Positions 10,017 to 10,295 of a DNA stretch of 64,000 bases are shown here, one piece after another. A model generated the notes under the pieces. The model did not search any database. It saw only the letters and a list, made by a program, of their open reading frames with translations, and was not told the DNA's origin. Position numbers and translations under genes: made by a program. The DNA lies in assembly GCF_003790525.1 (NCBI RefSeq), contig NZ_CP033634.1, one strand, 5' to 3'. Positions within the stretch are counted from its first letter, which is position 1. The number at the start of each line of letters is the position of its first letter. This DNA comes from Escherichia coli. Its GTDB lineage: Bacteria; Pseudomonadota; Gammaproteobacteria; Enterobacterales; Enterobacteriaceae.

Positions 10017-10295
10017 TTATGTGACCTTTTCGTCTTCCAGAATTTTATACACAGTGGAGCGGGCAATACTGAGTTGTCGGACTATATCCGTTGCGCCAGT
10101 CCCCTGGCAGTGGAGCGCCAGCACACTGTTTCTGCCGATGGTGCGCCTGCGACCAAAGCGGATACCTTTCAATTTTGCTTCCAGTCTACCTTCATTCGTG
10201 CGTTCCAGTATTCTCTGTCGCTCGGCCTGGGCTACAGCCGACAGAATGGTGACCACCATAAACGTACACGTCAGCACACGACAAACATGCTTCAA
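10017..10295 (-). pseudogene. C-terminal fragment of a serine recombinase (resolvase); catalytic N-terminus absent
   Basis: Translation contains [29 protein letters not shown]...[22 protein letters not shown], the resolvase linker plus HTH; ORF only 92 aa. Confidence 0.55.

Follow-up and report, generated by a model that had tools for sequence, protein, structure and literature searches.

The best described relatives of this locus are the resolvases of Tn3 (PDB 5cy1) and of gamma-delta, or Tn1000 (1gdt, 1zr4). In both enzymes residues 1-105 include the Ser10 nucleophile and the rest of the active site. Isolated C-terminal domains of gamma-delta resolvase bind res half-sites, and the isolated domain has been solved as 1res. 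In the Tn3 and Tn1000 layout, tnpA and tnpR are divergent around res, cargo lies downstream of tnpR, and there is a 5-bp target duplication. We analyzed a 64,000-nucleotide stretch of an Escherichia coli contig (NZ_CP033634.1, RefSeq assembly GCF_003790525.1), referred to here as the window, in which a first-pass annotation made from the sequence alone had placed a resolvase gene remnant beside a partition locus. The remnant is very probably a non-functional tnpR pseudogene left from a ~7.3-kb Tn3-subgroup transposon, part of which is still present in the window (Table 1).

Table 1 Coordinates of the features of the window and of the complete transposon copy in metagenome contig L024.
Feature	Sequence	Coordinates	Strand	Details
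38-bp terminal inverted repeat GGGGTTTGAGGTCCAGTGGAACGAAAACGTACGCTAAG	Window	6490-6527	+	Tn3-family transposon end
DUF7916 protein, 309 aa	Window	6623-7552	-	Cargo; Pfam PF25509, E = 1e-120
NagE-like PTS EIICB, 465 aa	Window	7549-8946	-	Cargo; Pfam PTS_EIIC and PTS_EIIB
GntR/UTRA-family regulator, 249 aa	Window	9180-9929	+	Cargo; Pfam GntR and UTRA
Truncated tnpR pseudogene	Window	10017-10259	-	Codons 106-185 and stop of a Tn3-subgroup resolvase gene
Junction microhomology CACCAT, 6 bp	Window	10254-10259		Shared by intact tnpR (Met106-Val107, minus strand) and the miniature-element interior
Non-resolvase DNA giving the TTG start and first 12 ORF codons	Window	10260-10295	-	Miniature-element remnant
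Miniature-element right-hand end	Window	10260-10346		93 bp if the ambiguous 6 bp are counted (10254-10346)
Array of 8-bp GATAACAA repeats	Window	10409-10473		Putative par centromere; 4 direct, then inverted copies
Partition operon	Window	10467-11392	-	ParA ATPase and 100-aa ORF
100-aa ORF	Window	10467-10769	-	Putative centromere-binding protein
ParA ATPase, 208 aa	Window	10766-11392	-	Several Pfam hits and NCBIfam
Inverted repeat	L024	5417-5454
Cargo DUF7916, PTS, GntR	L024			Order as in window
Intact tnpR, 185 aa	L024	8946-9503		Resolvase and HTH_7
res-like region, TGTCTGTTATAACA and TGTCCGATAATTTATAACATTTCGGACA	L024			~163 bp
tnpA	L024	After res		DUF4158 and DDE_Tnp_Tn3 (E = 7e-150)
Second inverted repeat	L024	12670-12707		2 mismatches
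5-bp target duplication	L024			GACTA at both ends

The list of open reading frames in the window includes a 92-aa minus-strand ORF with a TTG start at 10017-10295. Residues 48-88 of this ORF match the Pfam family HTH_7 (PF02796) with an E-value of 6.4e-12 and 45.8 bits, against a cut-off of 23.8, and residues 13-44 correspond to positions 112-143 of the 145 in the Pfam family Resolvase (PF00239), where the score of 22.0 bits falls just below the cut-off of 23.3. In ungapped PDB alignments, residues 13-91 of the ORF pair with residues 106-184 of Tn3 resolvase (5cy1) at E = 1.2e-35, and residues 13-88 pair with residues 106-181 of gamma-delta resolvase (1gdt) at E = 3.4e-25, matches much stronger than chance would give; the fragment also aligns to 1res. 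These Pfam and PDB alignments bear out the first-pass annotation's claim that the ORF carries the C-terminal end of a serine recombinase, and the comparison with intact resolvases that it had proposed as its own check places the fragment among serine recombinases. Its description of the remainder as a linker and a helix-turn-helix domain was correct for the HTH domain but too narrow, as nearly all of helix E, from Met106, and the arm are retained as well. The deletion that it postulated is supported: residues 1-105, which make up the whole catalytic domain, are missing from the window copy, the window has neither a second TnpR N-terminus nor a res site, and the complete copy in L024 displays the parts that were lost, including a res region (~9504-9666) that matches nothing in the window. 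With an HTH domain present and both the catalytic domain and an adjacent res absent, the fragment is a remnant of the small serine recombinase family, nearest to Tn3 TnpR, and not a member of it.

The extent of the remnant is smaller than that of the ORF. Only 80 codons and the stop codon derive from a resolvase gene, so that the interval originally assigned to the remnant, 10017-10295, is correct up to 10259 and includes a further 36 nt of other origin. Those 36 nt are identical in plasmids without any tnpR remnant, and the 92-aa open frame is an accident of the fusion. The remnant itself is already known, as RefSeq annotates it as a pseudogene: in pGZM7d, a nearly identical plasmid, the NCBI annotation pipeline (PGAP) marks the equivalent of 10017-10259 as 'incomplete, missing N-terminus' and names its product 'helix-turn-helix domain-containing protein'.

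The complete copy of the transposon was recovered by a pattern scan of metagenome contigs (L024, OEPS010000045.1). It is 7,291 bp long and 92.6% identical to window positions 6488-10259, and the homology ends exactly at 10259. The window remnant is identical to the 185-aa TnpR of L024 at 77 of 80 residues. The L024 tnpA gene carries a 1-bp frameshift near codon ~62 (about 9850) relative to close relatives, which may be either real or an assembly error, and the flanks of the element resemble the enterobacterial ompX-mntR chromosomal region. This copy, 7.4% diverged from the window, is the only structurally complete one that we found, and neither PLSDB nor the complete E. coli genomes contain a full copy with this cargo. 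Protein homologues of the remnant are mostly short, truncated resolvases, two of which (P0002 and P0093) led to alternative truncations of the gene. Two others, P0013 and P0004, were rejected as ancestors: their resolvases are 90% identical but lie beside different cargo. The tnpA upstream in contig L010 was likewise rejected as the cognate transposase gene, its product being just 30% identical to the Erwinia TnpA and its own inverted repeat stopping ~240 bp before the tnpR break, with unrelated DNA between. A conserved 30-nt tnpR string, compared with genome contigs, matched solely a chromosomal Serratia silvae resolvase gene with unrelated neighbours.

In the window the transposon is represented by 3,770 bp (6490-10259), made up of one inverted repeat, the cargo, and 80 codons from the 3' end of tnpR. 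Relative to L024, 3,519 bp are absent, namely tnpR codons 1-105, res, tnpA, and the second inverted repeat; this lost segment has no match in the rest of the window except the shared inverted repeat. Of the features that define the Tn3 family, the window copy of the transposon has one ~38-bp GGGG...TAAG inverted repeat and no PF01526 TnpA. The 38-bp repeat matches the window at a single place and had no match in 100 shuffles. In L024 and in contigs L009, L010, and L023 this module ends at a repeat of identical sequence, and homology between the window and independent contigs stops precisely at this repeat, outside which lies the 5-bp sequence TGGTA (6485-6489). The order of genes around DUF7916 is the same in L024, L009, and L010, and the co-linear block of tnpR remnant, GntR/UTRA regulator, NagE-like PTS EIICB, and DUF7916 is found elsewhere too. 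The gene is therefore the tnpR of a transposon and not a plasmid resolvase gene.

Several further observations concern the sequences at and around the transposon. The product of the PTS gene scores 573.5 bits against TIGR01998 (cut-off 553.2). PGAP calls the same gene a pseudogene, 'missing C-terminus', and the 465-470-aa EIICB architecture is unchanged in the diverged copies of L024, L009, and L010; the gene probably encodes a whole EIICB that has no EIIA fused to it, and not a truncated protein. The terminal 71 bp of the transposon (6490-6560, the inverted repeat and 33 bp more) occur at 100% identity in ~375 Klebsiella plasmids of ~130-300 kb, for example L014, apparently as a solo end without cargo. 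At the left edge of the window, the minus strand of 24-614 encodes an N-terminal piece of a different Tn3-family transposase (DUF4158, E = 5.5e-55). It is the only TnpA-like sequence in the window and is 32-37% identical to the TnpAs with which it was compared, and it belongs to another element, a further transposon remnant. Farther along, the 3' end of a PAS/HAMP methyl-accepting chemotaxis gene (1847-3976, plus strand) overlaps an IS256/Mutator-family transposase gene (3967-5175, minus strand); in pGZM7d it is IS26 that adjoins the start of this chemotaxis gene.

Comparison of three sequences at the break defines the junction. With the break marked by a slash, the intact gene in L024 reads GGTGACCACCAT/TTTCCCC, the window reads GGTGACCACCAT/AAACGTAC, and the partner DNA in contigs L004 and L015-L018 reads ...ACGGCACCAT/AAACGTAC. 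From 10254 or 10257 onward, the window sequence is shared with plasmids that lack tnpR, such as the IncK2 plasmid pTMSA1088 and pRM7190-2. The break falls inside the common CACCAT, which is the signature of illegitimate, microhomology-mediated joining. Because the break has neither an inverted repeat nor a res crossover, the action of transposase or resolvase does not account for the junction. One illegitimate recombination event mediated by the microhomology, most simply a deletion within a single molecule, would have fused codon 106 of tnpR to internal sequence of a miniature Tn3-type element 262 bp long. Before the event this miniature element would already have been located 62 bp from the iterons of the par locus, and any intervening plasmid DNA would have been removed at the same time. 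We infer a single deletion, as the immediate ancestor, a backbone with the complete transposon, was not found. No empty site was found for the 6490 end either; in the commonest class that ends at 6484, the one example examined (H133) has an IS3-family insertion there.

The miniature element is known in complete form from L018 (2334-2595) and from L015-L017. It has no coding capacity, carries a Tn3-type inverted repeat at each limit (GGGGTTGCACGCCGGAACCGCCGAAATTTCCG... and GGGGTTCTACGCCGGAACCGCCGAAATTTCCG...), and is related at its two ends over the first ~32 nt, each starting GGGGTT. Its right inverted repeat lies at ~10310-10346 in the window, with the outer end ...GAACCCC. The repeat alone occurs in hundreds of Klebsiella, Vibrio, and Proteus plasmids, and in Vibrio anguillarum it is found 2.2 kb from a Tn3-family tnpA. 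Being short and non-coding with Tn3-type inverted repeats, the element resembles the miniature inverted-repeat elements derived from Tn3 (TIMEs). However, the complete copy in L018 is flanked by ACTTC and CTATT, without the 5-bp direct repeats that would match a target duplication, and recent mobility is therefore only putative. Table S2 of PMC13367494 lists the sequences of TIME244, IS101, MITESen1, IMU, and MITEKpn1; the repeat string of the 262-bp element is absent from the supplement files searched as text, which is a weak test. On its left the miniature element has been truncated at no fewer than four points across plasmid lineages. A break near 10254-10259 is common to three lineages, and a site-specific hotspot there (Xer, shufflon sfx, or res) was considered and set aside because no convincing match was visible by eye. 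With at least four left truncations in an element of ~260 bp, two that fall within 3 bp of each other are unremarkable (rough p ~0.15).

The partition locus next to the miniature element may be of the small-ParA (type Ib-like) kind, with ParA, a 100-aa ORF as putative DNA-binding protein, and arrays of 8-bp repeats flanking the operon on both sides. ParA matches NF041546 with an E-value of 1e-45 at 155.8 bits, below the cut-off of 180, and the 100-aa ORF has no family match in Pfam or NCBIfam. The second array, of 7-8 copies, is upstream of parA at 11517-11575. The first-pass annotation had the resolvase remnant abutting this locus, directly next to the iterons, which holds only approximately: the first GATAACAA repeat, at 10409, is 150 bp from the junction and 62 bp from the outer end of the miniature repeat, and the immediate partner of the remnant is the miniature element. 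The number of downstream GATAACAA copies varies, with 4 direct copies here and at least 10 in pRM7190-2 and p13KWH46-3. The AT-rich spot ~60 bp from the iterons is occupied by the miniature-element repeat in the window and in IncI1-type relatives (...GAACCCC/CTATTAATA, with a slash at the repeat end), and an IncI-gamma/K1 Shigella plasmid has a different Tn3-type repeat (reverse complement GGGGTCCGCTTGGAAAAGCGGAAATTTTCCCACGCTAAG) ending 1 bp away at the same spot (...GGACCCC/TATTAATA). In this comparison, which covered window positions 10254-10351, L018 2334-2595, and L029 2380-2520, the spot appears to collect Tn3-family ends repeatedly. Beyond the partition operon, a umuC/impB-like gene (11596-12777) has no N-terminal part: its match to the Pfam IMS profile begins at position 31, and in pGZM7d PGAP marks it as a pseudogene. 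Next, in the region 11596-16300, comes an inserted block that encodes a 362-aa protein without a known family, a PIN_12-domain protein, and an AbiH-like ORF, and that may be a defence island in the imp/muc operon.

The remnant has continued to change since it was formed. The copies that share this exact junction differ stepwise: D147 and A165 in P0001, G147 in L023, and G147 together with V165 and a synonymous change in the window and in pGZM7d. All intact relatives examined carry D147 and A165. The older divergence from the intact L024 lineage comprises 8 synonymous changes and 1 other non-synonymous change. The post-truncation substitutions, very few in number, would fit a loss of constraint. 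The linkage of tnpR to this cargo is also cut elsewhere at other points, in E. coli contig L008 at codon 111, where an IS-associated repeat adjoins, and in L009 and L010 near codon 125, so no fixed product has been conserved. In ~25 plasmids of the p13KWH46-3 type (IncK2/Z-type and related), a 3.5-kb deletion corresponding to window 6816-10326 has taken out the PTS and gntR genes together with the tnpR remnant and 73 bp of the miniature element. What these plasmids keep is the inverted repeat with 214 bp of DUF7916, after which their sequence resumes at the equivalent of 10327, with the breakpoint at 4001-4002 in p13KWH46-3 itself (L005). They descend from a window-type arrangement, and such remnant-free derivatives (~25) outnumber the records that keep the remnant (4-5).

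An alternative origin of the junction is illegitimate recombination between two replicons, for example a plasmid or chromosome with the transposon and an I-complex plasmid with the par module, which would likewise leave the remnant a pseudogene. The region is a mosaic, as many plasmid types have the left flank (AraC-type HTH, PerC, ProQ) and the par module apart from each other, no plasmid was found with the full transposon at this site, and the closest records are typed IncFIA yet carry I-complex par genes. Against this, the IncK2/Z-type relatives L005 and L008 hold both flanks together in the same order, which makes one deletion the more economical account. Nothing in the sequence itself would separate a deletion in situ from the two-replicon route, and on balance we consider the latter rather unlikely.

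Doubts about the pseudogene itself carry far less weight. Because PGAP names the product merely a helix-turn-helix domain-containing protein, the ORF might be taken for a chance frame or for a real small HTH regulator outside the resolvases; the E-value of 1e-35 over 79 residues of Tn3 resolvase rules this out, and the colinear match to a complete tnpR, 92.6% at the nucleotide level and with the genes in the same order, reduces its probability to practically nothing. A somewhat better case, still a very improbable one, can be made for a functional helix-E-plus-HTH protein, expressed perhaps by read-through from par, that binds res-like sites of related incoming Tn3-family transposons or poisons their resolvases as mixed dimers. 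The frame is open, its HTH_7 match is above the Pfam cut-off, it is on the same strand as and downstream of parA and the 100-aa ORF, from which read-through transcription is possible, and the half-site binding of isolated gamma-delta C-terminal domains offers a precedent. However, the TTG start lacks a Shine-Dalgarno motif, and a weak consensus scan gave no sigma-70-like site upstream of the start (above 10295), placed both minus-strand candidates (10110-10081 and 10025-9997) inside the ORF, and detected, at 10280-10263, a hairpin trailed by a T-rich stretch that separates the remnant from the par operon. In addition, two non-synonymous changes after truncation affect residues that are invariant in intact relatives, the more numerous derivative plasmids have lost the remnant altogether, the window offers no res site, and truncation of the same gene at other points elsewhere argues against a conserved product. 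More speculative still, and accordingly given slightly less credence, is the idea that par read-through could yield a domesticated anti-transposon or dominant-negative factor, a fragment that, by binding res sites or pairing with resolvases, would hinder cointegrate resolution or else derepress or repress the tnpA and tnpR promoters of related incoming Tn3-family transposons.

As a decaying tnpR pseudogene, the remnant is an ordinary rearrangement scar and nothing new in kind, truncated tnpR genes beside stranded cargo being routine in plasmids. What it offers is context. It marks the adjacent DUF7916/PTS/GntR sugar-uptake cluster as former Tn3-family cargo that is now immobilised: given the biology of Tn3 and gamma-delta, an arrangement with no catalytic domain, res, or transposase leaves the cargo immobile and the remnant able neither to recombine nor to resolve. 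Together with its junction, the remnant is also a lineage marker for chicken- and human-associated E. coli plasmids, and it orders them from the complete transposon, through the window type, to the p13KWH46-3-type deletion.

The papers searched on Tn3-family elements with PTS cargo, and on IncK2 plasmids with a resolvase, yielded nothing specific and no name for the transposon. In its protein, the remnant resembles Tn3 and gamma-delta resolvases through an ungapped helix E, arm, and HTH, and the intact relative in L024 has the same two-domain layout as Tn3 TnpR; unlike those enzymes, the window copy has lost residues 1-105 and res, which excludes activity as a recombinase. Within the plasmid collection, the nearest relative that is intact is a recombinase of Erwinia tracheiphila pETR004-c (WP_016193187.1), encoded beside a Tn3-family transposase. 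Its gene is 78.8% identical to window 10030-10259 at the nucleotide level, and the proteins are 82% identical over 79 residues, but it belongs to another element with another C-terminal tail and other neighbours. The 38-bp repeat is likewise of the GGGG...ACGCTAAG type found in Tn3-subgroup transposons, with 6-7 mismatches of 38 relative to the Tn3-type repeats of L003 and L010, and L024 reproduces the Tn3/Tn1000 layout. Unusually, the cargo consists of DUF7916, PTS EIICB, and GntR genes and not a resistance gene, and the window retains the cargo half only. The transposition half is ~93% identical to an element, cargo-less or differently loaded, that is widespread in Klebsiella and Enterobacter plasmids, a sequence relationship that suggests modular exchange within or near tnpR and res.
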